A stretch of 64,000 nucleotides of DNA from Tubulanus polymorphus (GCF_964204645.1 NC_134036.1:8036812-8100811); one strand, 5' to 3'; positions 17,601-64,000 are shown, counted from the stretch's first letter. Notes: generated by a model not told the origin, from the sequence alone. Made by a program: numbers and translations.

Positions 17601-17620
17601 CTAATTTTGTTGTTATATAA

Positions 17621-38101: not shown

Positions 38102-38199
38102 AAGAATGCTTGAAATTAATAAGAGAAGAAAGAAAAGAGAATTATATTATGAAAAGGATTCCAGCACGTTAATCAATTTAAAAAATATATATTTTATAA

Positions 38200-38973: not shown

Positions 38974-39089
38974 AGATTAATATATCTCAAATCTTCAACT
39001 AGCTAGTATTTAAAATTCTTTTACTTCAAATGGCTAGTATCATTTGAAGAATAAGTATATTATTTTTTCCGCTTTTTTTGCTAAAATAA

Positions 39090-39989: not shown

Positions 39990-39995
39990 AATAAG

Positions 39996-41079: not shown

Positions 41080-41724
41080 ATGAATAAAGATTTATTTATA
41101 TTTGAACCACATAATATGTTAGTTACTGGAGTAACAAATTGTGGTAAAACACATTTTGTATTAGATTTATTAGAAACTATTTATAAAAATCATTTTGATA
41201 ATATAATATTATTTTGCTACTTATTTTCCTACTTATTAAATGAATAAAACATATAATAAGGATATAGTTAAGATAAAAAAGTTTATTATATTAGATCCTA
41301 AAATAGTAAATGAAAATTTAGATAATTGTATTAAAATAGCAATTGATATTTACAAAGGAACAAATACATTATTCATTATAGATGATTGTGCAAATTTACA
41401 TGATTCAAAATTTAGAGAAAGTGAGTTATGTTATTTAGCTTTCTCTGGGGGACATTTTGGGATAACAACTTGGTTTTTAAATCAAAAATATAATTCAATT
41501 GTTAAAGATTTTAGAGAGAATATTATATTCTTAGTTTTATTTTATAACTAAGATAGAAAATCAATGCAACAATCATTGGAAGAAAATCAAATTCTACCTG
41601 AAAATCAATTATATCAAATTATACTGAATTACATGATGAATATATGAATAAATTAAAAAGTAATGAAGGTTCAAAATTATTACTGAGACTACAATTTCCC
41701 TATGAATATAAATTTATAAAATAA
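41080..41724 (+). pseudogene. A32-like packaging ATPase, frameshifted
   Basis: VTGVTNCGKT, LFIIDDCA, FSGGHFGITTWFLNQ. Confidence 0.9.
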
Positions 41725-43172: not shown

Positions 43173-43288
43173 AGTAATTAGAAAAGTAGGCTTTCAGGCC
43201 AGAGGACGAGAGGACGAGACACCACTCATCACCACAAGTAATTTTTTTCCTAGCACTCATCACCACAAGTAATTTTTTTTCCTAATAA

Positions 43289-43445
43289 ATGGGGGAGAAT
43301 GAACACCAACTAGAAAACAATAATGTCAATAAAAATCAATATTATTGTCAATATTGTAAAAAATACATCGATACATCTAATAAAACACGACATGAAAAAT
43401 GTTAGAAATTATATTGATTCACTAGAAATAAAAGATACAAATTAA
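43289..43445 (+). pseudogene. 5' stub of pPolB within the long TIR (mirror copy ~49155-49310)
   Basis: MGENEHQLENNNVNKNQYYCQYC identical to the element 3 start, then an internal deletion to the 51815-like sequence. Confidence 0.9.
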
Positions 43446-43514
43446 ATTTTTTTTTTTTGCTTTTTTCCAAAAATAAACACACTTTTTAATATAAAAGCGC
43501 TAATAAAATGATAA

Positions 43515-43790
43515 AATTGTTCAATATTAAAAGTGTGAGTAAAGTGTGAGTAAAATAATTTAGATTTTCAATATTAAAAGTGTGAGTAAAGTGTGAGTAA
43601 AATGATAAAATTGTTTAATATTAAAAGTGTGAGTAAAGTGTGAGTAAAATAATTGAGATTTTCAATATTAAAAGTGTGAGTAAAGTGTGAGTAAAATGAT
43701 AAAATTGTTTAATATTAAAAGTGTGAGTAAAGTGTGAGTAAAATAATTGAGATTTTCAATATTAAAAGTGTGAGTAAAGTGTGAGTAATA
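43515..43790. repeat. ~47-bp tandem repeat (AATATTAAAAGTGTGAGTAAAGTGTGAGTAA core), 6 copies; ~4 inverted copies at 48900-49080
   Basis: Read directly. Confidence 0.9.
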
Positions 43791-43804
43791 ATTTTGTTAT
43801 AAAA

Positions 43805-44461
43805 ATGAAGAAAGAAGAACCCAACTTCAAAATCGAAATCAATGAAACCAATAAATCATTTTCACAGTTTAACATTAGAAATTATATTTCAGCAACAAAT
43901 TTAGTATATGGAAGACAATATAAAATTGATAATATTACTGTAATTAATCAAATATTATTAAATGAAACATATTTAATTACTGAACTAATAGATACTTTAG
44001 ATAATGGCGCCAAAAATCCTAAAATATTTAATACAGTTTTAAATTATAAAGGTAATTTAGATGAAAACATAATAAATATTCTTAAATTTCCTTTTAATGA
44101 AAGAGAAAGTGATATAATACTTTCAAAAGGTAATGATAGGATAGACTTAAGAATTGAAAAACGACGATTATATTATTGTAATTTTGATGATAAACAAATT
44201 ATTTATAATGAAAATACATCAAATATTGAAATTCAATGTGATTTAGAAAACAATAATTCTTTTAAAGATATTGCAATTCAGTGTGATTTAGAAAATAGTA
44301 AATCTTTTAAACATATCGCAATTCAATGTGATTTAGAAAATGAATTCAAAAGATTTAATCCTAATGAAAAAATTCATTGTTATTGCGGAGGTAAATATTC
44401 AAAATCACATAAATCAAAGCATTACCAAACAATTAAACATAAAAACTGGTGTAAAGAGTAA
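43805..44461 (+). CDS. Hypothetical protein (218 aa) with three IQCDLEN repeats and a C-terminal zinc finger
   Basis: Intact ORF, ATG at 43805; HCYCGGKY...KH...KH; present only on the left arm. Confidence 0.7.
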   Translation: MKKEEPNFKIEINETNKSFSQFNIRNYISATNLVYGRQYKIDNITVINQILLNETYLITELIDTLDNGAKNPKIFNTVLNYKGNLDENIINILKFPFNERESDIILSKGNDRIDLRIEKRRLYYCNFDDKQIIYNENTSNIEIQCDLENNNSFKDIAIQCDLENSKSFKHIAIQCDLENEFKRFNPNEKIHCYCGGKYSKSHKSKHYQTIKHKNWCKE

Positions 44462-44534
44462 CAATTCTACATTGAAAATAAATTAAATAGTCAAATAATT
44501 ATTGAATTTAGTTAAATGATTTAAATATCTAATA

Positions 44535-44945
44535 GACTGTTGAAATGATAAATTGTTTGGCTGTTAAAATGATAAATTGTTCGACTGTTGAAATAATAAA
44601 TTGTTTGACAGTTGAAATGATAAATTGTTTGACAGTTGAAATGATAAATTGTTTGACAGTTGAAATGATAAATTGTTCGACTGTTGAAATGATAAGTCAG
44701 TTGAAATGATAAATTGTTTGACAGTTGAAATGATAAATTCTTTGACAGTTGAAATGATAAATTGTTTGACAGTTGAAATGATAAACTGTTTGACAGTTGA
44801 AATGATAAATTGTTCGACTGTTGAAATAATAAATTGTTTGACAGTTGAAATGATAAACTGTTTGACAGTTGAAATGATAAACTGTTTGACAGTTGAAATG
44901 ATAAATTGTTCGACAGTTGAAATGATAAATTGTTTAGCTGTAAAT
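44535..44945. repeat. 24-bp minisatellite (GACAGTTGAAATGATAAATTGTTT)n, left arm
   Basis: Read directly. Confidence 0.95.
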
Positions 44946-45059
44946 TTAATTGTTATTTGATTTAATCATTTAAAAGTTTAATATTTTAAAAATGATTTTA
45001 AAATATTTAAATAAAAACAAGCAAATGTTTATTAATTTTCTAATTTCTTTCTTAAATAA

Positions 45060-45278
45060 ATGGATGGTTTCATTCCAACTGGGAAAAGTGATTTAAAACA
45101 TTATTTAGTTGCTGGAGGTTTAATTTTAGCTGCGCTTTACTTTTATTATGAAAATATTTCAAAAGATTTAATAAATGAAAATAATAAATTAAGCAAGAAA
45201 TTAAAGAAGTTAAATACTAAAAATGGAAATAATTATAAAAACGGTAATAATCACAAGAAAGTTGTTGAATCAGATTAA
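45060..45278 (+). CDS. Small single-TM protein (72 aa)
   Basis: TAAATG start, YLVAGGLILAALYFYY; identical inverted copy at 47026-47244. Confidence 0.65.
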   Translation: MDGFIPTGKSDLKHYLVAGGLILAALYFYYENISKDLINENNKLSKKLKKLNTKNGNNYKNGNNHKKVVESD

Positions 45279-45314
45279 ATAGTGAATTAATCTATTAAAA
45301 TCTTTTCTTATTAA

Positions 45315-45596
45315 ATGAGTGAAAATATATTAAATTTGTTAAATCTTATTTACAGAAATCAAGAGAAAATGAAATTAATTATGATGATTTCAGGGTTACT
45401 TTCATTTTCAGTTTATAGTTTGAAACAATTGTTTCATTTTTATGATGATTGTAAAATAAAATATATTGAATTGAAAAATAATATCAATTACATTTCAGAT
45501 AGAATGAATAATATTAAAAGATGCGAAATTTGTAGTAAAAAATACAAGACGGAAAAAGGATTTAGAAATCATAAAATTGGGCATAAATTGGAATGA
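45315..45596 (+). CDS. Small protein with hydrophobic segment and C2H2 zinc finger (93 aa)
   Basis: TAAATG start; CEICSKKYKTEKGFRNHKIGH; inverted copy at 46708-46989. Confidence 0.7.
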   Translation: MSENILNLLNLIYRNQEKMKLIMMISGLLSFSVYSLKQLFHFYDDCKIKYIELKNNINYISDRMNNIKRCEICSKKYKTEKGFRNHKIGHKLE

Positions 45597-45649
45597 TTAA
45601 ATAACAAATTAAAGTAAAGAATTTTAAAAAAATCTCATTTATTGTGTAA

Positions 45650-46655
45650 AATTGACTAAAATTGAACTAAAATAGACAACTTCGTTAATCTAATGAAATT
45701 TTAGTTATATTTTAGTTGAATTGTAATTAAAGTTAGTTGCAACTAACTTCAACTAGAATTTAACTAGAATTGACTAAAATTGAACTAAAATAGACAACTT
45801 TGTTAATCTAATGAAATTTTAGTTATATTTTAGTTGAATTGTAATTAAAGTTAGTTGCAACTAACTTCAACTAGAATTTAACTAGAATTGACTAAAAATT
45901 TAAAAAGATTAACAAGACAGTTGATTTAGTGTATTTTTAGTCAATTCTAGTTAAATTCTAGTTGAAGTTAGTTGCAACTAACTTTAATTACAATTCAACT
46001 AAAATATAACTAAAATTTCATTAGATTAACAAAGTTGTCTATTTTAGTTCAATTTTAGTCAATTCTAGTTAAATTCTAGTTGAAGTTAGTTGCAACTAAC
46101 TTTAATTACAATTCAACTAAAATATAACTAAAATTTCATTAGATTAACAAAGTTGTCTATTTTAGTTCAATTTTAGTCAATTCTAGTTAAATTCTAGTTG
46201 AAGTTAGTTGCAACTAACTTTAATTACAATTCAACTAAAATATAACTAAAATTTCATTAGATTAACAAAGTTGTCTATTTTAGTTCAATTTTAGTCAATT
46301 CTAGTTAAATTCTAGTTGAAGTTAGTTGCAACTAACTTTAATTACAATTCAACTAAAATATAACTAAAATTTCATTAGATTAACAAAGTTGTCTATTTTA
46401 GTTCAATTTTAGTCAATTCTAGTTAAATTCTAGTTGAAGTTAGTTGCAACTAACTTTGATTACAATTCAACTAAAATATAACTAAAATTTCATTAGATTA
46501 ACAAAGTTGTCTATTTTAGTTCAATTTTAGTCAATTCTAGTTAAATTCTAGTTGAAGTTAGTTGCAACTAACTTTAATTACAATTCAACTAAAATATAAC
46601 TAAAATTTCATTAGATTAACAAAGTTGTCTATTTTAGTTCAATTTTAGTCAATTT
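45650..46655. repeat. 118-bp tandem repeats in head-to-head arrays (~2 plus ~6 units), each with a 20-bp perfect palindrome
   Basis: AAGTTAGTTGCAACTAACTT in each unit; period 118 (46028, 46146, 46264...). Confidence 0.92.
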
Positions 46656-46707
46656 TACACAATAAATGAGATTTTTTTAAAATTCTTTACTTTAATTTGT
46701 TATTTAA

Positions 46708-46989
46708 TCATTCCAATTTATGCCCAATTTTATGATTTCTAAATCCTTTTTCCGTCTTGTATTTTTTACTACAAATTTCGCATCTTTTAATATTATTCAT
46801 TCTATCTGAAATGTAATTGATATTATTTTTCAATTCAATATATTTTATTTTACAATCATCATAAAAATGAAACAATTGTTTCAAATTATAAACTGAAAAT
46901 GAAAGTAACCCTGAAATCATCATAATTAATTTCATTTTCTCTTGATTTCTGTAAATAAGATTTAACAAATTTAATATATTTTCACTCAT
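46708..46989 (-). CDS. Inverted copy of the 93-aa zinc-finger protein
   Basis: One amino acid difference (S/N) from 45315-45596. Confidence 0.7.
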   Translation of the reverse strand: MSENILNLLNLIYRNQEKMKLIMMISGLLSFSVYNLKQLFHFYDDCKIKYIELKNNINYISDRMNNIKRCEICSKKYKTEKGFRNHKIGHKLE

Positions 46990-47025
46990 TTAATAAGAAA
47001 AGATTTTAATAGATTAATTCACTAT

Positions 47026-47244
47026 TTAATCTGATTCAACAACTTTCTTGTGATTATTACCGTTTTTATAATTATTTCCATTTTTAGTATTTAACTTCTT
47101 TAATTTCTTGCTTAATTTATTATTTTCATTTATTAAATCTTTTGAAATATTTTCATAATAAAAGTAAAGCGCAGCTAAAATTAAACCTCCAGCAACTAAA
47201 TAATGTTTTAAATCACTTTTCCCAGTTGGAATGAAACCATCCAT
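47026..47244 (-). CDS. Inverted copy of the 72-aa TM protein
   Basis: Identical translation to 45060-45278. Confidence 0.65.
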   Translation of the reverse strand: MDGFIPTGKSDLKHYLVAGGLILAALYFYYENISKDLINENNKLSKKLKKLNTKNGNNYKNGNNHKKVVESD

Positions 47245-47359
47245 TTATTTAAGAAAGAAATTAGAAAATTAATAAACATTTGCTTGTTTTTATTTAAATA
47301 TTTTAAAATCATTTTTAAAATATTAAACTTTTAAATGATTAAATCAAATAACAATTAAA

Positions 47360-48903
47360 TTTACAGCTAAACAATTTATCATTTCAACTGTCGAACAATT
47401 TATCATTTCAACTGTCAAACAGTTTATCATTTCAACTGTCAAACAGTTTATCATTTCAACTGTCAAACAATTTATTATTTCAACAGTCGAACAATTTATC
47501 ATTTCAACTGTCAAACAGTTTATCATTTCAACTGTCAAACAATTTATCATTTCAACTGTCAAAGAATTTATCATTTCAACTGTCAAACAATTTATCATTT
47601 CAACTGTCTTATCATTTCAACAGTCGAACAATTTATCATTTCAACTGTCAAACAATTTATCATTTCAACTGTCAAACAATTTATCATTTCAACTGTTAAA
47701 CAATTTATTATTTCAACTGTCTTATCATTTCAACAGTCGAACAATTTATCATTACAACTGTCAAACATTTTATCATTTCAACTGTCAAACAATTTATCAT
47801 TTCAACTGTCAAAGAATTTATCATTTCAACTGTCAATTAATTTATCATTTCAACTGTCTTATCATTACAACTGTCAAACATTTTATCATTTCAACTGTCA
47901 AACAATTTATCATTTCAACTGTCAAAGAATTTATCATTTCAACTGTCAAACAATTTATCATTTCAACTGTCAAATCATTTCAACAGTCGAACAATTTATC
48001 ATTTCAACTGTCAAACAATTTATCATTTCAACTGTCAAAGAATTTATCATTTCAACTGTCAAACAATTTATCATTTCAACTGTCTTATCATTTCAACAGT
48101 CGAACAATTTATCATTTCAACTGTCAAACAATTTATCATTTCAACTGTCAAACAATTTATCATTTCAACTGTCAAACAATTTATCATTTCAACTGTCAAA
48201 TCATTTCAACAGTCGAACAATTTATCATTTCAACTGTCAAACAATTTATCATTTCAACAGTCGAACAATTTATCATTTCAACTGTCAAACAATTTATCAT
48301 TTCAACTGTCAAACAATTTATCATTTCAACAGTCAAACAATTTATTATTTCAACTGTCGAACAATTTATCATTTCAACAGTCGAACAATTTATCATTTCA
48401 ACTGTCAAAGAATTTATCATTTCAATTGTTAAACAATTTATTATTTCAACAGTCGAACAATTTATCATTTCAACTGTCAAACAATTTATCATTTCAACTG
48501 TCAAACAATTTATCATTTCAACTGTCAAACAATTTATTATTTCAACTGTCTTATCATTTCAACAGTCGAACAATTTATCATTACAACTGTCAAACATTTT
48601 ATCATTTCAACTGTCAAACAATTTATCATTTCAACTGTCAAAGAATTTATCATTTCAACTGTCAAACAATTTATCATTTCAACTGTCTTATCATTACAAC
48701 TGTCAAACATTTTATCATTTCAACTGTCAAACAATTTATCATTTCAACTGTCAAAGAATTTATCATTTCAACTGTCAAAGAATTTATCATTTCAACTGTC
48801 AAATCATTTCAACAGTCGAACAATTTATCATTTCAACTGTCAAACAATTTATCATTTCAACTGTCAAAGAATTTATCATTTCAACTGTCAAACAATTTAT
48901 CAT
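47360..48903. repeat. Expanded 24-bp minisatellite, right arm (~1.5 kb)
   Basis: Reverse complement of the unit at 44535-44945, with interspersed shortened units. Confidence 0.95.
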
Positions 48904-50597
48904 TTTACTCACACTTTACTCACACTTTTAATATTGAAAATCTCAATTATTTTACTCACACTTTACTCACACTTTTAATATTAAACAATTTTATCATTTT
49001 ACTCACACTTTACTCACACTTTTAATATTGAAAATCTAAATTATTTTACTCACACTTTACTCACACTTTTAATATTGAACAATTTTATCATTTTATTAGC
49101 GCTTTTATATTAAAAAGTGTGTTTATTTTTGGAAAAAAGCAACAAAAAAAAATTTAATTTGTATCTTTTATTTCTAGTGAATCAATATAATTTCTAACAT
49201 TTTTCATGTCGTGTTTTATTAGATGTATCGATGTATTTTTTACAATATTGACAATAATATTGATTTTTATTGACATTATTGTTTTCTAGTTGGTGTTCAT
49301 TCTCCCCCATTTATTAGGAAAAAAAATTACTTGTGGTGATGAGTGTTAGGAAAAAAATTACTTGTGGTGATGAGTGGTGTCTCGTCCTCTCGTCCTCTGG
49401 CCTGAAAGCCTACTTTTCTAATTACTTGCGGCAACACTTCAAAGGCCGTTCCGTCGTGAGGTTAAATGAACAATCCAATGGGAATAGTCTTGGGAATCCA
49501 TGATCCAAACGACGTACGTAAAGCCAAACAAACAAAAAGACAAGCAAACAATCATCAGCCGGCCTCAGTGACACCAACGCCGGCATCGCTCTCTGCGACG
49601 TTTTGCATGCGTACATGCATCAGAGCTTGGAGCTCTACGATCAGAGAGTCTTGCAATTGCATTCTTAAAAATCGTTCTGTTTTTGTTTTCATTATTCAGT
49701 GGAGCCTAACAGTTCATGCGTAAAAATGGGTTTCTGTATCCAAATCTTGATTGATATAAATATCTTGGCTGGGACATGATGGAAAAGATCAGAATAAACT
49801 AGTTTCGTCTTTTTAACAGAATCGCATTAATGAGGTTTAACAGTACAAAGAGCCTAGGCTAAATCGTTCGGCAGAAAATAAATTCATTTTCAGGAATAGA
49901 ATCGTACTAGACAAATAGACCTTTTAGTCTGTGGTCCTCCCAATCAACATCGTCATAGAAGATTTGCCGGCATATATAAAACATTATAACCACTCAACTC
50001 TTTCAATGCGACTTCCCTAAAAACCAGATCCTGAGATTTTTTCAAAAAATATTGGGTTCTCAAACTTCTAGACGGTCTAATACGCTTCCCTACACTAAAA
50101 TATGATGATTCAGCTTGTTTCTGATGATGTAGCTATTCTGGGGTCGTTAGGGGCCCCCAAAATGTCCAAAAAGAATTTGACCTACTTTCGGGTCATTCGG
50201 GTACCCCTACCCCTAACTGCAGCTTCATATTCTCTCTATATATCTTCATTATATCCACTGCGTCATGTATAGACACCGTATACCAGCCGCTGTGTCTATG
50301 TATAAAGCTTTCAATTTTGCCCTACTTTGTTTACACAACTTGACCTCAATTCACCGATAATGACTTTCGTGACCTACATAGATTTTATTCATACACCCGC
50401 CAGCGAACTCGAACAAAAACAAGTCCCTGGGGTTGCCAGGACTACCAGGCATACATACAAGCCGTATAAGCTTTATACATTGCCATTTAGACAGTAAGGG
50501 GATAAGTAGGTCAAACACCTGTGACGTGGCGCCACACCGCGCAAAAACAAAGCGTTCTGGAGACTGTGTCGTCCGGTCACAGTAAGCGTGGAAAGAG

Positions 50598-51270
50598 TTT
50601 TAACTTTATCTTGTATAGAATTATTATTATTTGGAGGTTTATCTGGTTCATAAGGATTTGGTGTAGATTCCAATGAATTTGATATTGCTAAACCAATTGT
50701 TGTAAAAAACATAGTTACAGCTGTTAGAATTGAAAGAATTGTTATACCTTCTAACTTAAATAATAATCTTATTCTATCTTTCAATGATATTTTAGAATCT
50801 GGTTTTATTATTAAATCTTTAAAAATAACTTTTAATTTTTTAATATGATTAAGATCATATGATTTCAATAATATATCTCTTTCTTTTTCCTGCAATTCTT
50901 TGGTATATTTTAAATCATCAATTTCTTTTTCTAAAGATGACTTTCTGCTTTAATGTTCAGCTTCATCAATTACTTGAAGATCTCTATTTAATTCTAATTG
51001 TTTTAATTCTTCGTTAGCATCAGTTAATTCTTTTTCTAACATGGTATTTAAGAAAATCTCATCTTAATATTAGCAATTTCACCAGCTGATTCTTGCATAC
51101 CTTTAATTTCTCTACGTGCTTGTTGAGGAAATACTTTTAATTGTTCTTCATTTAAATCAAGTAATCTTTTTTTAATGAAGATTGCATTCGATTTGTTCCA
51201 GTTTCAGTACCAGGTGTATCTAAAATACTAATCATATCTTCTTCAAATGAATTCATTGTATCCAGTAAGT
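50598..51270 (-). pseudogene. Fragment of a diverged 484-aa gene homolog from another Polinton in reverse orientation
   Basis: LKVIFKDL.IKP.S.ISLKDR..LLFKLEGITILSILTAVTM shared with 61495-62949. Confidence 0.85.
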
Positions 51271-51425
51271 TATCTGTAACCGGCTGGTTGTTGTATCGGC
51301 AGGCTGGCTGGGGAACTAGCATTTACAGCAGCGGTACAGGAGTAATTAGAAAAGTGGGGTTTCATACCAGAGGGCGAGAGGGCGAGACACCACTCATCAC
51401 CACAAGTAATTTTTTTTCCTAATAA

Positions 51426-54400
51426 ATGGGGGAGAATGAACACCAACTAGAAAACAATAATGTCAATAAAAATCAATATTATTGTCAATATTGTAAAAAA
51501 TACATCGATACATCTCATAAAACACGACATGAAAAAACTGCAAATCATATAAAAAATGTAATAGATTTTGAAACTCCAGAAAATTCCATTGAAAGAAAAG
51601 AACGATTAGAAAATATGAATGTGGATGAAATAAAATGTGAAGTTTGTAATGAATTTATAGTAAAAAGGAATTATAATAGACATCTCGAATCACAAAAACA
51701 CCGCCAAAATTTGAGTAATAATGTTTTAGGAAAAGATTATTTTGATAATAAACCTCAACAAGTAAAAGAATCAACTTCAAAAACAAAATCCATTTCAAAT
51801 AAACCTTACATGGAAAATGTTAGAAATTATATTGATTCACTAGAAATAAAAGATACAATTGAAATTTTAGAAACATTACATAGTAAAATTGGTCCTGCAG
51901 CTATTATATTTAGATTTTTTAAAGGTACAACAATAGAAGATTATAGTACATTTAATGAAATAATAGAAAAAATACTAGATTTGATAACAGATGTTGAATA
52001 TCCAAAAATTAGTATCTCTGGGAAAGTAAGTTTTATAAAGTCAGAAGAAAAAATGAATTATAATATTCAAACACACTCTGAAGAAATAATTTCAAAAACA
52101 CAAATAAAAGAGAAGTTAGAAAAAATATTTAATGAATTTAAACGTCATATTGAAGAAAGATATTTTGAGGGTTCTGGCTTAACATTGAATGAAATTATAT
52201 ATTTAGATTTAAATGTTTATAATACAAAAAGGAATAAAACATCAAAAAGTAATAAAATGTTTAAAAATGATTCAAACTTTACAACAGAAAAGGATATTAA
52301 AGCATCATCTTATATTAAATTACCATTTACAACAAAAGCAGTAATAAATGTTCAAAATGAAGATAATAAATGTTTTCTATGGTCAATTATTAGTTGTTTA
52401 CACCAAACAGAAGATATGACGCATAGTTTTAGAATAACAAATTACCGGAAATATGAAACATTATATAAAATTGATCAATATCCAGTAACTATAAAAATGA
52501 TTCCTAAAATAGAAAAAATTAATAATTTAAAAATAAATGTATTTGAATTAATGCAATTACCAAAGACAAAAGGTGAAAATATTAAAGATTATACATTGGA
52601 AGCTTTATATTTAACAGAATATTATGATGATGAAAATGCTATAGATTTGTTATAATACAAAAAAGATGAAAATGAACATTATATGTGATTAAAACAAATT
52701 GATTTATTCTTTAGAACAACAGAAAGTGATCATCATCGTAAAATTTATCTATGTAGAAAATGTTTATCTAAATTTATGACTGAGAATACATTATTAAAAC
52801 ATAAAGAATTATGTGATAATAAAGATTTTTGTAAATTAATAATGCCAACAGAAAAAGATTATAAATTGAAATTTACTAATCATAAATTTAAAAATATTGT
52901 TCCATTTGTAATTTATGGGGATTTTGAATCGTTGAATAAAGAATTAACTGATCAAGATAGAAAAGAAATATATAACAAAAAGCAATTATTAAAATCAATG
53001 GATAAAGGAAATGAATTAAATGAAGACACAATACAAGACCCACCAATTATAAACACAATTAAAAAAGTTCATCAAAGAGCTGCTGCTTATGGAATTTATA
53101 TAAAATCAAATTATCCCGAATTATATGAAAGTCAATATATTTCTTTTAGAGGTGAAAATGTAGTTAATGATTTTTTTGATAAAATTATTGAATTAGAAAG
53201 TGATTTTGCAAAATTATTAAACAAAAATAAAAGAATAGTTATGACAAAGGAAGATGAAATTGATTTTAATTATGCAACTCATTGTTGTTATTGTGAAAAA
53301 CGTTTTTATTCATTTGATAAAAAAGTTAGAGATCATAATCATTTAAATTCAAAATATCGTGGAGCTGCTCATGAAGATTGCAATTTACAAGCTAAAAAAG
53401 TAAATTTTGTACCAATATTATTTCATAATTTATCTGGATATGATACTCATCTATTTATAAAACAATTATCGGGAAAATTGGGTGCAATTAATCAAGAAAT
53501 AGAAGAATATAATACTATGAATGGTGTAAATGTAAGAAAATATGATTTTAAACTATTAGCTAAAACATCTGAAAATTATATTTCATTTCAATTTGGTTGC
53601 ATTAGATTTTTAGATTCTTATAGATTTCTAGCAAGTTCATTAGATAATTTATCAAAAAGTTTAGTTGATAATGATTTTGTTATAACTCGATATTATTATC
53701 CAAATGAACAAGATTTTAAATTATTGAGATATAAAGGCGCAATTCCTTATTCATTTTATAAAACACATGATGATTTTAATGTAACAGAATTATTAAAAGA
53801 TCAATTTTATGATAAATTAAAAGAGGAGTATGTGAAAGACGAAGTTTTTAATAGAACATTAAATATTTGGAACCATTTTAAGATGAAAAATCATGGCGAA
53901 TTAGTTGATTTATATTTAAAATCAGATGTTATGATATTGGCTGACATATTTGAAAAATTTAGAGAAGTTAATTTGAATCATTTTAATGTTGATCCTTGTT
54001 ATTGCTACTCTAGTCCTGGTTTAACCTGGCAATGTGGTTTAAAATATACAAATGTAGAATTAGATTTATTAAAAGAACCAGATATGGTTTTATTATTTGA
54101 AAAATCAATTAGAGGTGGAATTAGTGGTGTTATGGGAGATAGGTATTTTAAAGCAAATGATGAATATAAATTATTATATATTGACGCCAATAATTTATAT
54201 GGTTGGGCAATGATGCAACCTCAACCATATAAAAATTTTATATTAACAGAAGTTGAAAATGGTGATAAAACTGATTGGGAAAGCGCAATTATTAGTTTAA
54301 AAGATGAAGCACCAATTGGTTATTTCTTTGTAGTTGATTTAGAATATCCTGAAAATATAAAGTTTAAAACAAGAAACTTACCTTATTGCCCAGAACATTT

Positions 54401-56497
54401 AACTGTAGATGATAGTTATTTAAGTGAATACCAGAAGAAAATAAAACCGAAAGATCATGTTTTTACAGAAAAATTAATACTTACTCAAAATAATAAATAC
54501 AATTATATTGTTCATTATAGAATGTTAAAATTTTATCTAAAACAAGGAATGAAATTAAAGAAAGTACATAGATATATTGAATTTAATCAATCGAAGTGGT
54601 TAGAAAAATATATAGATTTCAATACTCAACAGAGAACCATATCAAAAACAGATTTTGAAAAAGATTTCTTCAAATTAATGAATAATAGTTTTTATGGTAA
54701 AACATGTGAAAATATTCGTAATAGAAACGACATTGAATTAGTGAATAATTCTGAAAGATTAAGACATTTACAATCAAGTCCTAGACATTTAGGAAATAAG
54801 AGGTTTGAGGATTATTTAACCGCGGTAAAATTAAAAAGAACGTCCATGAAATTTAATAAACCAATATTTATAGGTTCGACTGTTTTGGAAATTTCAAAAT
54901 TATTGATGTATAATTTTTATTATAATGTTTTGCAACCACTTTTTGGGGAAAAACATATAGAAATCTTATATTTTGATTCTGTTACAGCAGACACCCCAAT
55001 ATTATTAAAATGTAATGATAAAATATTGGTAAGAAGAATTTCAGAAATAATTCCAAAACAAAATGAATGTTATATTTCATGTGGTGAAAAAGAACTAATA
55101 CAAATAAATGGTTTAATGGATGTTTCGACGAGAAATGGATGGAAAAAATTAAAGAATATTATTAGGCATAAAACAAATAAGAAAATCTATAGAGTTAGAA
55201 CTAAATTAGGATTTGTTGATATTACTGAAGACCATAGTTTAATTAAACAAAATGGTGATGAAATAAAACCAACTGATATAACAATTGGAGATGAATTATT
55301 ACATAAAAGATTTTTCCCAAGAATGAATCATATGTCATTTGATGAAATAATTGATAATATTTATAATATAGAACCTGAAACATTAGAAGAAAAAGAATAT
55401 TTTATCAAAGGATTTTTCATGGGTGATGGTTCAGCAGGTGTGTATAATTATGTTAATCGCACTCAATATCGTTGGTATTTATGCAATCAAGATTTGAAAT
55501 TATTAGAAAGAATAAAGAAATTTTGCGAAGAAGTTTATTCACATAAAACATTTAGAATCATGGACCATATGAAATCATCCGCGGTTTATAGAATATTTGT
55601 AAATAATCCTAAAGATTTTGCTACAAAATATAATGATGAATTCTATATTCATGCAATAGTGAAAAGTAATACTTCAACAAAAGAAAAGATAGTTCCAGAT
55701 TATGTATTGAATGCAAAAAATAATTTAAGAAAGTGGTTCTTCATTGGATTCTATGCCGCAGATGGTTCAAAAAGGTTCCAAACCGCAAAACAATATCCTT
55801 TGCTCAAAAAGGAAAATTTGCTATATCAGGATTGAATATATTATGCAGTTCATTAGGATTTAATATGAATATAGAATTAATTAAATCTAAACCAAATTGT
55901 TTTAATTTAAGGCATGTAGAAAAAGAATTAACAGAAGAAGTTAAAGATTTATTTGAAATATATAACCCAACTGACTATGTTTATGATTTATCAACAGATG
56001 ATGGAACATTCAATTCTGGGTTCCCATTAATCCAAACAAATACTGACAGTTACATACTAAAAATCAAGACAAATGATATAACAAAAGTCTTAAAAACATT
56101 AAAACATTATTTTGATTTTAGCAATTACCCCAAAGATCATGAATTGTTTAGCAATGATAATAAAAAGATTCCTGGTAAATTTAAAGATGAATTAGGAGGT
56201 GATGAAATGATTGAATTTGTTGGGATAAGAAGTAAAATGTATAGTTACAGAACAAAAGATCATGAAGCTAAAAAGTTAAAAGGAATAACAAAACATGTGG
56301 TTGATAAACATATAGAATTTCAAGATTATATAAAGTGTTTATATAACTCAATTGTAATGAAACACAAGATGAATTGTTTAAGATCAGAAGATCATGAGAT
56401 GTACATTAATGAAGTTGAAAAAACTAGTTTAAATCCATTTGATGATAAAAGGCATATTTCAGATGATGGTATAAAAACATTACCTTATGGCCATTAA
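51426..56497 (+). pseudogene. pPolB with intein; two premature stops (~52653, ~52686) and one frameshift (~55775)
   Basis: ORFs 51426-52655, 52776-55835 and 55733-56497 join into one polymerase with all exonuclease and polymerase motifs. Confidence 0.95.
54978..56041 (+). mobile_element. Intein with LAGLIDADG endonuclease (1-bp deletion near 55775)
   Basis: YFD|SVTADTP...DITEDHSL...GFFMGDGS...GFYAADGS...YVYDLSTDDGTF...IQTN|TDS; 1064 bp versus 1065 bp in element 1. Confidence 0.95.
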
Positions 56498-57805
56498 AAC
56501 ATAAAATCAATATCATCATACTCGAAATCACTATTAGCTTCTTCATTTTCATTTAATTGTTCAGGTTCTTCTTCCATTCCATTTTTCTCATTTAAATAAA
56601 GTTTTATCTTTTTCCACATTTCATCTCGCTCTCTTTGTTTCTTTTTGTTTGTTAATTCATCAAATGGAATTATAATATCTAGGTTTAAATAATTTACAAT
56701 CTTATTTAAAAAGAATTCATAATTTATTGAATCTGTTATTCTATTTTCCAAATGATACATTAATATTTGTTTAAATATTTTTTTTATATTTTCCATATCT
56801 TCTTCTGTTAATTTAGGTTTTTCATAATAATCGTTAAATAATAAATATAAATACATTTTCTTTTGTTTTGTGTTAAATGTTGGTGGAATAATTGTTTTTA
56901 TAATATCTTTTTTAGTTATTTCACCATTTTTATTTTCTATTATTTTCATTTTTTCAAGCCATTGCATATATTCTGGTGTATGATCTTCTATAGAAAATAT
57001 TTTAAAAATTTCATCAAGATAATTTAATTTTGGATCTATGAGAAAATCTCTAGTTTTTTCTTCACCCCATAAATTCCTTTGCCATCCACAATCAACACAA
57101 AATAACACAGTACCTTCTTGTCTTAAGGTCGTATAATAACATTGTGGGCATTTTTGTTTATAATTTACTGGTAATAGATCTTCATTAAGCTCTTGGTATT
57201 TTCTTACGTTTTCTTTATGTTTTATTGTTCTATTATGTAGATTTGAATTACTTGTTGTAATAATCAATTTACAATATTTACAATAATATGTTTTTCTTGT
57301 TAATTCATTATATTGTTTTTCTAACTTTTCAACTGTTTCTTCATTATCTGGTAATGTTTTCTCATATTTTATTTTTTCTAATAAATTATTTTTTCTTGCA
57401 TTGAATTCAGTTTCAAATTTATTAGAAATTTTATCTATATGTACTTAACGAAATTGATGATTCTCCCAATCTTCTATATTTTCAGGGTTATATTTTATTC
57501 GACAAGGCTCACAGAAATGATCTTTTATATTATCCTTATCATAGAATAAGAAAGGTCTTTTCCAAATAATTTCAGGTTCATTCAGAATTATTATTACTTT
57601 CGTTACTGTCAACATTAACTATTAAGTTATTATTTTTACACTTCTCTGAATGTTTTTTGAAATAATTTCTTGAGAATGTTTTATTACAATTTGGACAGTT
57701 TATTTTAGGGGGTTTATAATTTTCATAATGTTTTTTCATATGTCGAGCCATATTACTTTTTCTTAGAAGTTCACCACAAATTTCACATGCTATCTTCTCA
57801 TCCAT
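56494..57805 (-). pseudogene. Zinc-finger plus VLTF3-like late transcription factor gene (frameshift ~57580, stop ~57446)
   Basis: Comparison with element 1 shows that 57578-57805 and 56494-57267 belong to one ancestral ~435-aa ORF. Confidence 0.65.
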
Positions 57806-57873
57806 TTATTTAGGAAAAATTTTATTAAAATTAATTTTTAGTGATGAGCGGTAATATTTTTATGTTATAAATA

Positions 57874-58626
57874 ATGGTAGAATTAAAAGAATACAGAATA
57901 TTTGTTGATTCTAGAAAACTTACAAATTATAAATCTCATAATTTACTAATACAATTAGATAGAGAATTCAAGAATTGCGTTGATTTAAAATTAGTAAATA
58001 TAAGTTTATGTAATTCTTTTTACAATGTAACGGATAAAAGTCTTGAACATTTAATTTTTTCAATCTTTTATAAAAAAAGGAATAAATGGTTTTTTATATA
58101 TTTAAAACCAGGATTATATAATTTAAATACATTAGCACAAGAAATTAATAGAAAAGCTCGAGCTAAATTAGGAAGTGATTCTGGATTTAATATTAGAATT
58201 TTAAAAAGTGCTAGTTCTAATAAAATAAAGATTAGGTTAGACGAACAATTTAAATTTACAGTAAGAAAACCTTTAGGTAAACTGTTAGGAATTAACCCAG
58301 ATATTGTTACAGCATACGCAGAAGGTAAATCAAACTTAATACCTTTTACACATTTTTATATTTATTGCAATTTAATCGATCCTACAAAAACATTCGAAGC
58401 AACTAAAGATATAACTTGTAATTCTGGTTTACTAAACATTTTACCATTGAAGAATGTTAAAGAATTTGGAACGCAAATAAATTATAATTTAACAGAATGT
58501 GATTTCAAACCTTGTATTCCTCAATTTAATAATTTTAAATTAGAAATAAGAAATCATAATGGATACTTAATTGATTTGAATAACTTTCCTGTAATTTATG
58601 AATTAGTTATAAGATGTAAAGAGTAA
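57874..58626 (+). CDS. Minor capsid protein (penton)
   Basis: 250 aa, homolog of 12164-12922. Confidence 0.8.
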   Translation: MVELKEYRIFVDSRKLTNYKSHNLLIQLDREFKNCVDLKLVNISLCNSFYNVTDKSLEHLIFSIFYKKRNKWFFIYLKPGLYNLNTLAQEINRKARAKLGSDSGFNIRILKSASSNKIKIRLDEQFKFTVRKPLGKLLGINPDIVTAYAEGKSNLIPFTHFYIYCNLIDPTKTFEATKDITCNSGLLNILPLKNVKEFGTQINYNLTECDFKPCIPQFNNFKLEIRNHNGYLIDLNNFPVIYELVIRCKE

Positions 58627-58642
58627 TTTTTCACCTATATAA

Positions 58643-58999
58643 ATGAATATAACTGTTGGACCGAGTATATGTTTTGGGTTTGATTTTAAACGTGAGAAAG
58701 AAATGAAATTTAACATTAATGATGTAATAACACATATCAAAAATATTGCATTTTCTAATGAAACAACATTTGAGTATGAAACAACAATAGATAAAGAAAC
58801 TTTAAATGTAGAAAAGATTATTAATTTAATTAGAGAATCTTTAAGATTTTATGAATTAGATGAAGATTTTATCATCGATGATATTAAAAAAATAATAATT
58901 GAAATATATACAAATGAAACTAGTAATAAAATAAATGTTGAATTAATCATAAATAAGTTAACTAAATATTTTGATGATAGTAATTTTTTTGATAAATAA
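58643..58999 (+). CDS. Hypothetical acidic protein (118 aa)
   Basis: TAAATG start; abuts the next gene; conserved in element 1. Confidence 0.75.
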   Translation: MNITVGPSICFGFDFKREKEMKFNINDVITHIKNIAFSNETTFEYETTIDKETLNVEKIINLIRESLRFYELDEDFIIDDIKKIIIEIYTNETSNKINVELIINKLTKYFDDSNFFDK

Positions 59000-59221
59000 A
59001 TGAGTGATAATAAGTGGATAATAACTGGATTATATAATGGTGCATTACTATCAGTGGGAACTGTTGGTTATTCAATGGTATTAAAAAAAGTATTCAAAAT
59101 GGGAAGTGTTAATGTTGATAGATTTGATATAAATGATATTTTAAAGTTAACATTAGCAGTTACTTTATCTAATTTAACTATTGATTATTTGGAAAAACAA
59201 AAATATATTCCTCCCATATAA
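59000..59221 (+). CDS. Small hydrophobic protein (73 aa)
   Basis: Homolog of 13298-13519. Confidence 0.8.
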   Translation: MSDNKWIITGLYNGALLSVGTVGYSMVLKKVFKMGSVNVDRFDINDILKLTLAVTLSNLTIDYLEKQKYIPPI

Positions 59222-59246
59222 ATGCATATTTTTTTTTGCTAAATAA

Positions 59247-59669
59247 ATGGCTTCTGCAATTATAACTATTATAGGATCGACAATTGTTAACGCTTTAGCA
59301 TTTACTGGTGGTGGTTATTTATTTAAACATATTGATAAAAATAGTTCATTAGGAGAACAAAGAAGACATAACTTAGCGTTAGAGAAATACAATAAAGCTG
59401 CAGAAGAATATAGAGAAAAGAGGCAAAACTATATGGATTACATCAATAAAGAATTATATGATCAGAAGATTTCACATAGAGATTTTCAATCAGTTGATGA
59501 TGCAATGAGTTTATATAACGCAGTAACCAATAAAGAAAAATTACATCTATACAAACCTAAATTATCAGATTATTATACCCCAAGTAAAGAACAACAGAAA
59601 TATGAAATAATATGGATTTTAGGTGGAACAGTTATTGTTATATTTGTTGCTTATAAATTTACTAATTAG
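59247..59669 (+). CDS. Protein with hydrophobic termini (140 aa)
   Basis: Homolog of 13544-13966. Confidence 0.8.
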   Translation: MASAIITIIGSTIVNALAFTGGGYLFKHIDKNSSLGEQRRHNLALEKYNKAAEEYREKRQNYMDYINKELYDQKISHRDFQSVDDAMSLYNAVTNKEKLHLYKPKLSDYYTPSKEQQKYEIIWILGGTVIVIFVAYKFTN

Positions 59670-59688
59670 TAATTTTTTTTCTAAATAA

Positions 59689-60123
59689 ATGGAAGATAAA
59701 GTTGATAGTATTGATATTATTCCTCATAATATAAATAAAACTAAATTAAAAACATATTTAGAAAAACAAATATTAGAATTTGAAAGTGACTTAAAGATAA
59801 AAAAGAAAAAATATTTAAAAAGTAAAATTATATATTATCTTATTATAAGTGGTTCGGTTACAATTAGTTCTGTAATAACATTTTTAGCAATATTCAGTCC
59901 ATTAACACCTTTAGCTATATCAATTGGTGTGTTAGGATTAAGTTCAAGTGTTTTAACTGGTATAAGTTCAAAATTAAATATAAAAAGTAATAAAGAAAAA
60001 ATAAAATCTAATATAAAAGAAATTAATAAATTAAAGAACACACTAGATTATATAATAAGTTTAAATGGTCATATAACAGTTGAAGAACAAGATAAATTAT
60101 TAAAAGAATTAGTTAATTATTAA
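59689..60123 (+). CDS. Two-TM coiled-coil protein (144 aa)
   Basis: Homolog of 13986-14411. Confidence 0.8.
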   Translation: MEDKVDSIDIIPHNINKTKLKTYLEKQILEFESDLKIKKKKYLKSKIIYYLIISGSVTISSVITFLAIFSPLTPLAISIGVLGLSSSVLTGISSKLNIKSNKEKIKSNIKEINKLKNTLDYIISLNGHITVEEQDKLLKELVNY

Positions 60124-60140
60124 TTTTTTTAGTTATATAA

Positions 60141-61478
60141 ATGGGGTTTCCAAAAGCTTTCCAATATAATAAATCACATGAATATTATAAATATAATACT
60201 CCAGCAATAGATTTTAGTAACATGATAATATATAAAAATTTAGTTTTACCTTCATTGATTAATTTAGAAATTTATGTTACTGAAACAAACTATTTTATTT
60301 CTAAAATGGAAAATATATTTAATACATATGAAGTTACTTTTACTCGAGATGAATATAATATATATAAAGTAAAATCTAATATGAAATATTGGCAGAATCA
60401 ATTAAATTTTGCTGTTCATTGTGCAACAGCTGGTTGTGGTGTAAGTTGGCATGATCACTTGAATAACTTAGATAAAAATTTGAAATATTCTGATTTAAAA
60501 TTCATTCATACAATATTTAGATTTCATGTATACTTTCAAATTAGAATTATATTAAATGAATTAGAATGCCCTTTACCTGGATCAAAATATTTTAAAGAAT
60601 TAGATAATAATATTAATCTATCTAAGTTTTATAAAATATGTAATGAATTTAATATAAATATTAATTTCGATTTTAGAGCGCATGGTAAATTGCAAGGTGT
60701 CGGTGAACAGTATGAAATAAAAAGAATTGATTATATGCATAGAATTGGAGCTTATCATAATTATAAAATTAATAATAATAATGGTTGGGTTTATTTTATT
60801 GAATCTTATAGTGAAGGATTTACAAAACCCGGTATACAAAGAATAAATCAATCAATTAGAACTTATTTGATATGTATTTTAGGTGCACAAGTTGAAACAA
60901 GATCACCAATAGTTGGAAATAATAGTACTTCATTTGATGCGCAGAAACAATTCAAAGTATTATTTGAAGATTCCATTCATAATGATAAAAATAGATCGAT
61001 TCCAGAAAACATTGTAAGATATCAAAATTATTTAGATAAATCACATATTAGATTAAATTATTGTATAGGCCCTAATCTATTAATTATTTCTAATGATTTA
61101 GTATTAAAGATGGGAAACATAATTGGTTATAATAATCTAATTAAAACTGCAACAATAAATAATTCAATTGGATTAAATGATATAAATAAAAAGATTATTA
61201 CTGCTCCAAAATTAATGGAAGGTGAAAAAAATAAAAAACATATTCAATCAATAGAAACTAAAACTAATAATATTAAATTAAATAATGATTCCAAAATAAA
61301 AGATTACAATACTATAGAAAATGGTGCCGTACGGCACCCACACGGTGATATTAAAACCGATAAAATTCAACATGATATAATTAAACTAAATGATGATAAT
61401 AAATCCCATGAAAATACTAAATTAGCTATAACTTGTATAGGAATTGTAATCGGAGGAATATTATATTTTAAATTTTAA
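60141..61478 (+). CDS. Uncharacterised Polinton protein (445 aa) with C-terminal TM anchor
   Basis: Long intact ORF; QLNFAVHCATAGCGVS; ends LAITCIGIVIGGILYFKF. Confidence 0.85.
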   Translation: MGFPKAFQYNKSHEYYKYNTPAIDFSNMIIYKNLVLPSLINLEIYVTETNYFISKMENIFNTYEVTFTRDEYNIYKVKSNMKYWQNQLNFAVHCATAGCGVSWHDHLNNLDKNLKYSDLKFIHTIFRFHVYFQIRIILNELECPLPGSKYFKELDNNINLSKFYKICNEFNININFDFRAHGKLQGVGEQYEIKRIDYMHRIGAYHNYKINNNNGWVYFIESYSEGFTKPGIQRINQSIRTYLICILGAQVETRSPIVGNNSTSFDAQKQFKVLFEDSIHNDKNRSIPENIVRYQNYLDKSHIRLNYCIGPNLLIISNDLVLKMGNIIGYNNLIKTATINNSIGLNDINKKIITAPKLMEGEKNKKHIQSIETKTNNIKLNNDSKIKDYNTIENGAVRHPHGDIKTDKIQHDIIKLNDDNKSHENTKLAITCIGIVIGGILYFKF

Positions 61479-61494
61479 TTTTTTCATTATGTAA

Positions 61495-62949
61495 ATGGAT
61501 GTAGAAGGTGGAGAAGATATTGGAATGGATCCTTTTGATGAACCTGACATAACTGATGAACAACCACCTGATTTTGATGAAACAAGTTTTAATGATGGTA
61601 ATGAACCAGAATATAACAATAATTTAAATATGCCTGATTATATTAAAAATGCTGAATCACAATTAAATCCTGAAAATTTAGACCCAGATTCAGTAAAACA
61701 AGATTTAGATAATTTAAACAAAATACCTAAATTAGAAGATTTAATTGAAAAATCTAATTTTAACATAAATGATGAAGACGTTGGACTTTTAGCAGATCAA
61801 TTGAAATTTTTAGATAATGGTAAATGTTATTATCGTTTGAAAGGTGATTATTATATTGATATCACTTATAAAAATAATAAAAATAAAATATTATCAGAAT
61901 CAACTTTAGAAAAATTAATACCAGATAGAATTAAAATAATAAGTAATAGTAATGAAATAACTGATGTTACACAAAAAGAAATAGATGATAATATAGATGT
62001 ATTTAAACAAAGAATTAATGAATTATTTGAAATAATCAAAAAGAAATCAGAAACAGAAACAACTTCTGAACAGAATATAACTTCCAAAAATAGTAAACTT
62101 AGATCAAATAAAGTTCCAATTGAAAAACTTTTACCGAATGGATTATTTGATGCAACAGATCAAGAATTAGAAGATTTAGATATATTTTCTGATAAAGCAA
62201 TTAGAGAAATTATTAGTATAAGACTTGCATCTGATAAAATTGCACATAATAAAAGTATAAGAGATCAAAAAATTATGTATTTGGAAAAAGAATTAACTGA
62301 TAAAAATAAAGAAATAGAACAATTAAAGTCTGATTTAGATCATCAAGTAATTGATGAAATAGAATATAGGCAAAAAGAATTACGTTTAGAAAAAGAAATT
62401 AGTAATTTAAAAGATAATTTAGAAGTACAGAAAGAAGAAATTAAATTATTATTAAAATCATATGATTATAATATTAATAGATTAAAAGTTATTTTTAAAG
62501 ATTTGTTGATTAAACCAAATTCTGAAATATCATTAAAAGACAGGATGAAGTTATTATTTAAATTAGAAGGAATAACAATTCTTTCAATTCTAACAGCTGT
62601 AACTATGTTATTTACAACAATTGGTTTAGCAATATCAAATGCTTTGAAATCTACTCCTACTCCCAATAAACCAGATAAACCTCCAGGTAATAATTCTATA
62701 CAAGATAAAGTTAAGGATGGTTTAAAGAAATTAGCAAAATATTTATGGGAACTATCAAAGAAATCTGCTGCAGCTTTACCAGGAGTTATTGCATCAATTG
62801 TTGGTTTTATATTGAAATCTGCTGGGAATATTCTTAACTTTGCTGCTGAACATATTATTTTATTTTTAATCACAGTTGTAAGTGCTATTATTTTTGGGTT
62901 AGTAAATATGATATCAAAAAGATATCAAGAAAAAAATAATAAAAAATAA
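61495..62949 (+). CDS. Acidic N-terminus, coiled-coil, multi-TM protein (484 aa)
   Basis: Long intact ORF; homologous remnants at ~20520-21783 and 50598-51270. Confidence 0.85.
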   Translation: MDVEGGEDIGMDPFDEPDITDEQPPDFDETSFNDGNEPEYNNNLNMPDYIKNAESQLNPENLDPDSVKQDLDNLNKIPKLEDLIEKSNFNINDEDVGLLADQLKFLDNGKCYYRLKGDYYIDITYKNNKNKILSESTLEKLIPDRIKIISNSNEITDVTQKEIDDNIDVFKQRINELFEIIKKKSETETTSEQNITSKNSKLRSNKVPIEKLLPNGLFDATDQELEDLDIFSDKAIREIISIRLASDKIAHNKSIRDQKIMYLEKELTDKNKEIEQLKSDLDHQVIDEIEYRQKELRLEKEISNLKDNLEVQKEEIKLLLKSYDYNINRLKVIFKDLLIKPNSEISLKDRMKLLFKLEGITILSILTAVTMLFTTIGLAISNALKSTPTPNKPDKPPGNNSIQDKVKDGLKKLAKYLWELSKKSAAALPGVIASIVGFILKSAGNILNFAAEHIILFLITVVSAIIFGLVNMISKRYQEKNNKK

Positions 62950-62973
62950 ATAATTAATTTTTTTGTTAAATAA

Positions 62974-64000
62974 ATGAGTGGGAGTTATATAAGTCCTTCG
63001 AAGAATCATAGAATATCTAATGCTATTAAAGCAGAAAGATCACATCATATAATTACTCATAACCCTTCAAATATTAATCCCGATGAAACTTTATACGTTA
63101 GAATCCCTCGATTAACACAAAATACTTTTTATGTTCCAAATAGTATTTATTTATCAGCTGATATAAAAGTAATCGGTAATAATAATAATTATGTTGTCGA
63201 TAATGTTGGGAGAAATTTGATTAAAAAATTAACTATAAAGATTGGTCCAGAAACAGTTTTCTCATTAGATGATTATAATTTATTTATGCATTATAAAGAT
63301 TTATGGTTAACTAAAGAAAATAGAAATAATATGATATTTCAAGGAATCCAATCAGAAAACCATAATAAATTAAGATCTGAAGCCAATAACGCAGTAGTAA
63401 ATAATGGCGTAGATAATTTGATTAAAAAGATTTATGGAAGCAAATATAAAATTCCATTAGACTTTGAATTGATAAATAATAATGCACCTTTATATAAATA
63501 CGCAATTCAAGAAGATATTATATTTGAGATAACATTTGCTCCTGTAAATGAAATTGTATTATCTAGCGTTGTTAAAGATATGGGTTATAAATTATCGAAT
63601 ATATGTTTAGAATATAACACAGTAACTAATGAAAATATTGCTAGCACAATTCAAACTCAATACAATCAAGGATTTTCATTATTATATGATTATATTGATA
63701 AATTTAAAACTGTAACTATTAATGCAAATGATGAAATAATTAATGAGAATATTAATTTCCCAAGAAGATCTATTAAAGGTATATTAATATTTTTTACTAT
63801 TGCAACATATTCTAATGGTGCAATAAATGTTGATAATTATTATAATCCTGAAATAACAAAAGTAGAAATAACTATCGAAGGAATAGCGAATAAAATATTT
63901 TGCCAAGGAATGAGAATGATTGATCAATGGCCAGAAATTAGAAAACATTTTATGAATGAAAAAGTAAAATCATTTGAAAATTGTAATATTAATCAAATTG
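62974..64000 (+). CDS. Major capsid protein (double jelly-roll), 3'-partial
   Basis: Not in the ORF track because it runs off the end; MSGSYISPSKNHRISNAIKAERSHHIITHNPSNINPDETLYVRIPRL...VVDNVGRNLIKK...YKDLWL; lies upstream of integrase by synteny; ~420 aa when completed with the element 1 remnant. Confidence 0.8.
   Translation, partial: MSGSYISPSKNHRISNAIKAERSHHIITHNPSNINPDETLYVRIPRLTQNTFYVPNSIYLSADIKVIGNNNNYVVDNVGRNLIKKLTIKIGPETVFSLDDYNLFMHYKDLWLTKENRNNMIFQGIQSENHNKLRSEANNAVVNNGVDNLIKKIYGSKYKIPLDFELINNNAPLYKYAIQEDIIFEITFAPVNEIVLSSVVKDMGYKLSNICLEYNTVTNENIASTIQTQYNQGFSLLYDYIDKFKTVTINANDEIINENINFPRRSIKGILIFFTIATYSNGAINVDNYYNPEITKVEITIEGIANKIFCQGMRMIDQWPEIRKHFMNEKVKSFENCNINQI

Follow-up and report, generated by a model that had tools for sequence, protein, structure and literature searches.

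A Polinton cluster in Tubulanus polymorphus with a polymerase intein and a start motif resembling poxvirus late promoters

Results

Polinton copies at the locus

The DNA stretch analysed here (the window; 64,000 nucleotides of Tubulanus polymorphus, NC_134036.1:8036812-8100811) carries a cluster of decayed copies of Maverick/Polinton elements, and the copy of main interest, element 3, occupies its last part. The cluster itself is ordinary, and its unusual features are an intein in the protein-primed B-family DNA polymerase (pPolB) and a start motif that looks like a poxvirus late promoter. A sequence-only reading of the window had proposed that these are endogenous virophage-like Polintons tied to a large cytoplasmic DNA virus, based on four traits taken as typical for nucleocytoplasmic large DNA viruses (NCLDVs): the intein, a VLTF3-like gene, TAAATG at gene starts and an HNH gene in element 2.

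Three AT-rich blocks (21–25% GC) lie within a repeat-rich background of 33–41% GC, and every Polinton copy in the window is broken. Between them, the copies show terminal inverted repeats (TIRs), 6-bp target site duplications (TSDs), pPolB, integrase, ATPase and capsid genes, the anatomy by which Polintons are recognized (Table 1). Ends with 5'-AG and a 6-bp TSD were found in element 1, while element 3 shows its left end only. The polymerases matched PF03175 in Pfam (E 1.5e-18 and 4e-20). Remnants of an rve integrase and an A32 ATPase are present in elements 1 and 2 and not in the windowed part of element 3, with weak Pfam matches on broken pieces (rve_3 E 0.045; Pox_A32 E 0.045 and 0.0013). 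Element 1 additionally contains an insertion at about 5006–6261 and an internal deletion in its capsid block. An adenain-type cysteine protease is typical of group 1 Polintons and variable in group 2; none was seen in the open reading frames (ORFs) scanned, with element 1 internally deleted and element 3 cut by the window edge. The group-1 and group-2 labels used here are our assumption from sequence style and literature, rather than from a tree with named references.

The start of element 3 at 51341, as proposed earlier, held up well. Its terminus, AGTAATTAG, is common to the copies at 4405 and 43173/49426, and 876 reads of a whole-genome shotgun run (one species, 1.9 Gb) diverge from the repeated flank exactly at this position. 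From this run, 46,287 reads mapped to 49000–64000; the depth over element 3 was 71–1014 and read identity was mostly 90–99%, indicating that element 3 belongs to a multicopy family. It is 93% identical to element 1 across 8.8 kb.

Table 1. Coordinates of Polinton copies and their genes in the window
Feature	Position	Strand	Remarks
Element 1, Polinton with both TIRs	4405–20033	+	TSD AATGTG; integrase, A32 ATPase
Intact intein of element 1	9262–10326	+	355 aa; begins with Ser, has two LAGLIDADG blocks and ends in Lys-Asn before Thr +1
Element 2, older intein-free Polinton	34100–41720 (ends approximate)	+	71–76% identity; pPolB, HNH, integrase and ATPase remnants
Zinc-finger and HNH endonuclease gene, broken	38200–~38960	+	in element 2
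Palindrome, 6.25 kb, bounded by Polinton termini	43173–49426		TSD TGCGGC
Element 3, Polinton copy	51341–64000	+	left end inside window, right side past window edge
Left TIR region of element 3	51341–51425	+	ends in T-run/TAAATG start motif of first gene
pPolB with N-terminal zinc fingers	51426–56497	+	PF03175, E 1.5e-18
Motif-C (Pol-c type) LAGLIDADG intein	54978–56041	+	frameshifted in element 3
Zinc fingers, zinc ribbon and VLTF3-like domain	56494–57805	-	frameshift near 57580, stop near 57444
250-aa gene	57874–58626	+	weak PF19254 match
Four small genes (118, 73, 140, 144 aa)	58643–60123	+	140-aa gene conserved among related Polintons
445-aa gene	60141–61478	+	conserved in related Polintons; 30–31% identity to L095, L097, L102
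484-aa coiled-coil gene	61495–62949	+	
Major capsid protein gene	62974–64000	+	cut by window end; 30–36% identity to L091/L095/L097/L102

Polymerase intein

The predicted Pol-c intein was located precisely, as an insertion in polymerase motif C, and in element 1 it is intact and reads YFD/SVTADTP...PLIAKN/TD, slashes marking its borders. It starts with Ser, ends with Asn followed by Thr +1 and contains the dodecapeptide blocks of LAGLIDADG inteins. Its termini, including the penultimate Lys, and both blocks agree with the PolB intein of mimivirus. The match in the PDB was PI-PkoII (E 6e-8), and the Pfam intein matches were below the cut-off. In element 3, the polymerase gene is disrupted by two stops (52653, 52686) and by a frameshift within the intein; in the polymerase of element 2 the intein site is empty. 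The inteins of elements 1 and 3 are 91.9% identical and the flanking polymerase DNA 96.3–96.5%, with intein divergence peaking in the endonuclease half.

Homolog searches returned 531 and 2122 relatives, and extraction of inteins from the fetched proteins and loci gave 259 inteins, 242 of them distinct. Assignment by BLAST against references placed these in 15 protein-primed polymerases, 211 RNA-primed PolB and 16 unclassified polymerases. The 12 best non-self matches were all in Polinton polymerases (40–62% identity), and the best RNA-primed PolB match reached 40.5%. Two trees were calculated, one with 93 rows (the 60 best and every eighth remaining sequence, with four near-identical Polinton rows dropped) and one with 37 hand-picked rows. 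Polinton inteins formed a single clade in both (11/11, support 100, and 8/8, support 100/100). The same clade is found in P0005, a polymerase of a different Polinton type. In a 99-row tree of group-2 polymerases, built from segments upstream of the insertion site, the 10 intein-bearing rows fall within one 17-row clade (support 97), where intein-free sisters stand beside them and at least five changes are forced; the fraction bearing inteins is biased because those rows stem from an intein-led search. The nearest nameable relatives outside Polintons belong to IM_01: three of six giant-virus bins could be identified, and all were Imitervirales (PMC8575486).

From these phylogenies, the intein likely passed once, in the distant past, between the PolB of an NCLDV and an ancestral Polinton. 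The direction was probably from NCLDV to Polinton, since the intein is broad in NCLDVs and confined in Polintons. After its capture, the intein would have descended vertically, with repeated losses and at least one sideways move, a jump into the different polymerase type of P0005. In the literature on Polinton/Maverick inteins we found no paper describing this motif-C clade, and supplements of Polinton surveys and Repbase, which lay outside that search, may already annotate it. Endonuclease inserts in pPolB were suggested in passing to derive from intein invasions (PMC11161782), and the word 'intein' is absent from the main text of a paper cited there (PMC10748475).

Start motif

The TAAATG starts emerged more strongly than the sequence-only reading had described them. 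The hexamer is present at 9 of 10 true gene starts, while among internal ATGs its share is 6.5% (p ~2e-10). A run of five to nine T ends 8–12 nt ahead of the ATG at 10/10 starts; 0/20000 shuffles reached either the TAAATG or the T-run count. Three further ORF starts, which are motif-free internal restarts of broken genes, were left out. The layout is thus a T5-9 run, a spacer of 5–8 nt (5–7 nt in eight of the nine TAAATG starts, 8 nt in one) and TAAATG. The motif stands ahead of replication genes as well as structural genes; it lies in the TIR and so precedes the outermost gene on both sides of element 1. Because it also marks starts that have no upstream co-directional gene (51426, 57805 and 19953, as well as 57874, which lacks the exact TAA), it tracks gene starts and not gene ends. 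AATAAA overlaps the start at 6/10 sites, which keeps a reading as poly(A) signal alive.

Among close relatives (L081–L084), TAAATG was found at 8/11 starts, compared with 11/180 and 12/280 starts in other pPolB elements (6/51 under 30% GC) and 84/625 starts in NCLDV-type loci with related inteins, control starts being called by first ATG. The T-run and TAAATG together did not occur at any start in 35 control elements with at least 7 ORFs each. The unrelated element L183 has TAA/ATG at 5/14 starts, and the hexamer can therefore appear in other elements on its own. Two other identities of the motif were ruled out, a trans-splice acceptor by the lack of an AG ahead of the ATG, and a late motif of baculovirus type, for which we take TAAG, by the absence of that sequence. 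No paper describing a T-run/TAAATG motif in Polintons was found in the open-access literature covered on Polinton/Maverick promoters and TAAAT/TAAATG. Among the 24 of 193 loose-end contig rows listed for four runs (58560–60200), none had a poly(A) head, and contig depth was uneven in two of the four runs; neither observation is usable as evidence.

In L091, L093, L102 and L173, which have related capsid-module genes, a different start motif, AAAAATAATC, lies about 12–16 nt ahead of the ATG (5/11 starts in L102), which suggests that promoters may be lineage-specific across group-2 Polintons. TCTA, the late motif of Cafeteria roenbergensis virus (CroV), was seen within 30 nt of 5/9 starts in L005 and 8/15 starts in L006, and these two may be mavirus-like elements.

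VLTF3-like and HNH genes

A VLTF3-like gene is indeed present in element 3, on moderate evidence, as one broken gene of about 437 codons that is convergent with pPolB. PF04947 matched a 157-aa piece (E 3e-6, 27.4 bits versus a cut-off of 25) and was not reported by Pfam on a longer 315-aa stretch or on the intact homolog in L081. HHalign aligned the protein to giant-virus VLTF3 (93.6%, E 2e-7), and in the ESM Atlas (0.93) VLTF3 appeared in 26/30 matches, with a top cluster that is commonest in Preplasmiviricota. A zinc ribbon and, after it, the conserved helical domain are recognizable, in the order that characterizes VLTF3. The L081 homolog (697 aa, L081:4375-6465) is 47% identical across the domain, and identity to giant-virus VLTF3 is only 24–25%. 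The Polinton L091 also carries VLTF3 (E 1e-16), to which the protein of the window is not detectably close. None of 332 candidate homologs of the VLTF3-like stretch was confirmed, and PF04947 had no match in three records resembling polinton-like viruses (PLVs; L010, L013, L015). VLTF3 has already been described in coral Polintons (PMC11131425, which cites Krupovic and Koonin, 2016). Mriyaviruses (PMC11253617) and ariadnaviruses (10.64898/2026.08.29.747986) keep VLTF3 while lacking an RNA polymerase, and a nuclear way of life is inferred for both; as such viruses retain it, VLTF3 does not imply a cytoplasmic helper. The VLTF3-like gene speaks for its own origin in NCLDVs and does not show that a helper is required.

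The HNH gene of element 2 is real, and the part of the earlier claim that did not survive is its giant-virus type. Intact 256-aa homologs are encoded directly after pPolB in L082 and L084. PHROGs assigned the protein to endonuclease VII/HNH families (E 6e-12), three of five HNH loci in IMG/VR were phage-like by their neighbours, with one giant-virus bin matching the zinc finger alone, and the three best ESM Atlas clusters are commonest in Uroviricota; these searches for relatives were shallow (3 matches in one). Free-standing HNH genes have been reported from PLVs and phages as well as from giant viruses (PMC12220804). Judged by its mostly phage relatives, the gene is not giant-virus-specific and not an NCLDV marker.

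Further genes and repeats

The capsid and 140-aa genes of element 3 have orthologs with 30–40% identity in the metagenomic Polintons L091, L095, L097 and L102, three of which also have the 445-aa gene. [quoted passage not shown] Pattern searches for capsid relatives in IMG/VR confirmed 0/4 and 0/118 matches. The 250-aa gene probably encodes a minor capsid protein. The 144-aa gene (59689–60123, and at 13986–14411 in the other copy) encodes two transmembrane segments and matches SLATT weakly (E 0.005). A 108-aa gene without family match (19627–19953, minus strand) starts at the right-TIR motif of element 1, and a similar gene lies ahead of pPolB in L084. L173, L175 and L181–L185 are Polinton-like contigs in bins of bacterial metagenome-assembled genomes, likely from host or viral contamination.

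The palindrome is a non-autonomous Polinton derivative, likely moved by the integrase of the family. Its inner 118-bp repeats are kin of a 97-bp repeat at 17318–17589 in element 1, and it holds a 218-aa ORF (43805–44461) without Pfam match. Further Polinton fragments are located at 20.8–24.1 kb and 50.6–51.15 kb. A reverse-transcriptase-like fragment at 25123–25446 (minus strand), without Pfam match and presumably Penelope-like by its motif, is embedded in alternating 739/1023-bp repeats that span 24456–29600. The host background contains a 154-bp satellite array at 2246–3985 and a 24-bp repeat at two places, 1–242 and 30863–30989.

Discussion

The copies in the window share TIRs, the 6-bp TSD, pPolB, rve integrase, A32 ATPase and a jelly-roll capsid with group-2 Maverick/Polintons (adintoviruses, Polintoviricetes; coral polintoviruses, PMC11131425), some of which also have VLTF3. 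Unlike these, they carry the motif-C intein in pPolB and the T-run/TAAATG motif at gene starts; no cysteine protease was seen in the ORFs scanned. In Mimivirus and in Imitervirales IM_01, the PolB intein has the same site (D/S...N/TD), Ser start, Lys-Asn end and two LAGLIDADG blocks at 37–41% identity, whereas the host protein in our case is the protein-primed polymerase of an integrated element and the Polinton inteins form their own clade. Mavirus, the virophage of CroV in Cafeteria, has pPolB, rve integrase and integration into the host genome in common with our elements and bears one start motif on all its genes; it differs in that this is the CroV late motif TCTA rather than T-run/TAAAT, and in having a known helper and a protist host. 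AHEV_PLV1 and CBEV_PLV1, which are entomopoxvirus-associated PLVs and candidate poxvirus satellites, share the group-2 Maverick capsid lineage, but they occur in occlusion bodies together with their helper and encode a protease (PMC11296320); the terms 'VLTF', 'intein', 'motif', 'promoter' and 'TAAATG' are all absent from the main text of that report. The closest parallels to the start motif are the vaccinia late promoter, defined as a T-rich core, a 5–7 bp spacer and TAAAT(G/A) (PMC5294985), and the initiator region (INR) of the yeast pGKL elements (PMC6211774), in both of which TAAAT(G) abuts the start codon after a T-rich core and a 5–7 nt spacer. Vaccinia and the pGKL elements encode their own RNA polymerase, whereas the element in the window encodes none.

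Past contact of the Polinton lineage with NCLDVs is supported by the intein and the VLTF3-like gene, but the four traits do not amount to independent signs of one present-day helper, because Imitervirales are indicated by the intein, poxviruses by the motif and phages by the HNH gene. The loci of the nearest intein kin, IM_01, are themselves mostly without TAAATG. Of the nested set that had been envisaged, Polinton, intein and palindrome were found, whereas no gene of a helper virus lies in the window: 54/54 ORFs of at least 70 aa outside the Polinton blocks matched no NCLDV family. Of the four traits, only the start motif is informative about how the elements work today. It may act as a promoter, and the VLTF3-like protein may be the factor that reads it.

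Our preferred explanation, at about even odds, is a nuclear Polinton that uses host RNA polymerase II together with its own VLTF3-like factor at the T-run/TAAAT motif. In this scenario, a Polinton clade would have acquired its polymerase intein from a giant virus in one ancient event, the genes of the element would be transcribed in the nucleus by host RNA polymerase II, the VLTF3-like factor would aid transcription at the start motif, and no helper would be needed. A helper would presumably supply VLTF3 itself, making a copy encoded by the element redundant. Hallmark genes of coral Polintons are expressed in ordinary samples, although helper status is not addressed there. Several observations weigh against a nuclear, helper-free element. 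The motif closely meets the architecture of vaccinia late promoters as defined in PMC5294985, intergenic gaps are short and leave little room for ordinary RNA polymerase II units, and L082 and L084 have TAAATG starts, yet their contigs, which are partial, show no VLTF3-like gene. In addition, divergent group-2 Mavericks occur in entomopoxvirus occlusion bodies (PMC11296320), and the intein trees were calculated without outgroup and hence provide no root for the direction of transfer.

Because the start motif resembles a poxvirus late promoter, helper dependence is a live hypothesis. Integrated copies could be virophage-like satellites that stay silent until the RNA polymerase of a pox-like cytoplasmic virus reads the T-run/TAAATG sequences as late promoters. 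Sharing of promoters with the helper is known from virophages (mavirus and CroV), and the exact architectural match, the presence of the motif on replication and structural genes and within the TIR, its restriction to the clade of L081–L084 and the Mavericks in entomopoxvirus occlusion bodies all fit such a life style. We nevertheless regard it as a minority option, since the window has no helper gene, the intein relatives are Imitervirales and not pox-like, the HNH gene is phage-like, the element-encoded VLTF3 would be superfluous next to a helper and TAA/ATG recurs in the unrelated L183. In the boldest form of this option, for which the odds are similar, the whole Polinton clade would consist of satellites of an undiscovered pox-like cytoplasmic virus, with pox-late promoters on every gene from polymerase to capsid, a giant-virus intein predicted to be spliceable and a palindrome riding on the Polinton.

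The motif could also be a compact signal for the end of one gene and the start of the next, composed of stop codon, U-rich tract and AAUAAA over the following ATG, and would then be silent on the transcriber. The T-run often follows immediately after the upstream stop codon, and AATAAA overlaps most of the starts, but the motif is also present where no upstream gene needs to be terminated (51426, 57805, 19953) and 4/10 sites without AATAAA still keep the T-run, which makes this explanation improbable.

That the intein arrived recently from an NCLDV infecting T. polymorphus itself is very improbable and appears largely refuted by the comparisons: L081, whose polymerase is the nearest relative (86%), and element 2 are both intein-free, as expected for a recent arrival, but the nearest inteins sit in other Polintons (62%, P0001), their branching roughly parallels that of the polymerases and the best NCLDV match is merely ~40%. 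Co-residence with the donor genome in the present host, which the intein had been thought to require, is likewise not indicated, as the intein is common to many Polintons, and its single Polinton clade and patchy distribution in one polymerase clade argue for one old capture.

A motif-C intein clade that spans NCLDV PolB and Polinton pPolB would represent a transfer between two polymerase classes, followed by spread among Polinton types. The fixed start motif opens the expression of animal Polintons, and any need for a helper virus, to a direct test in this family.

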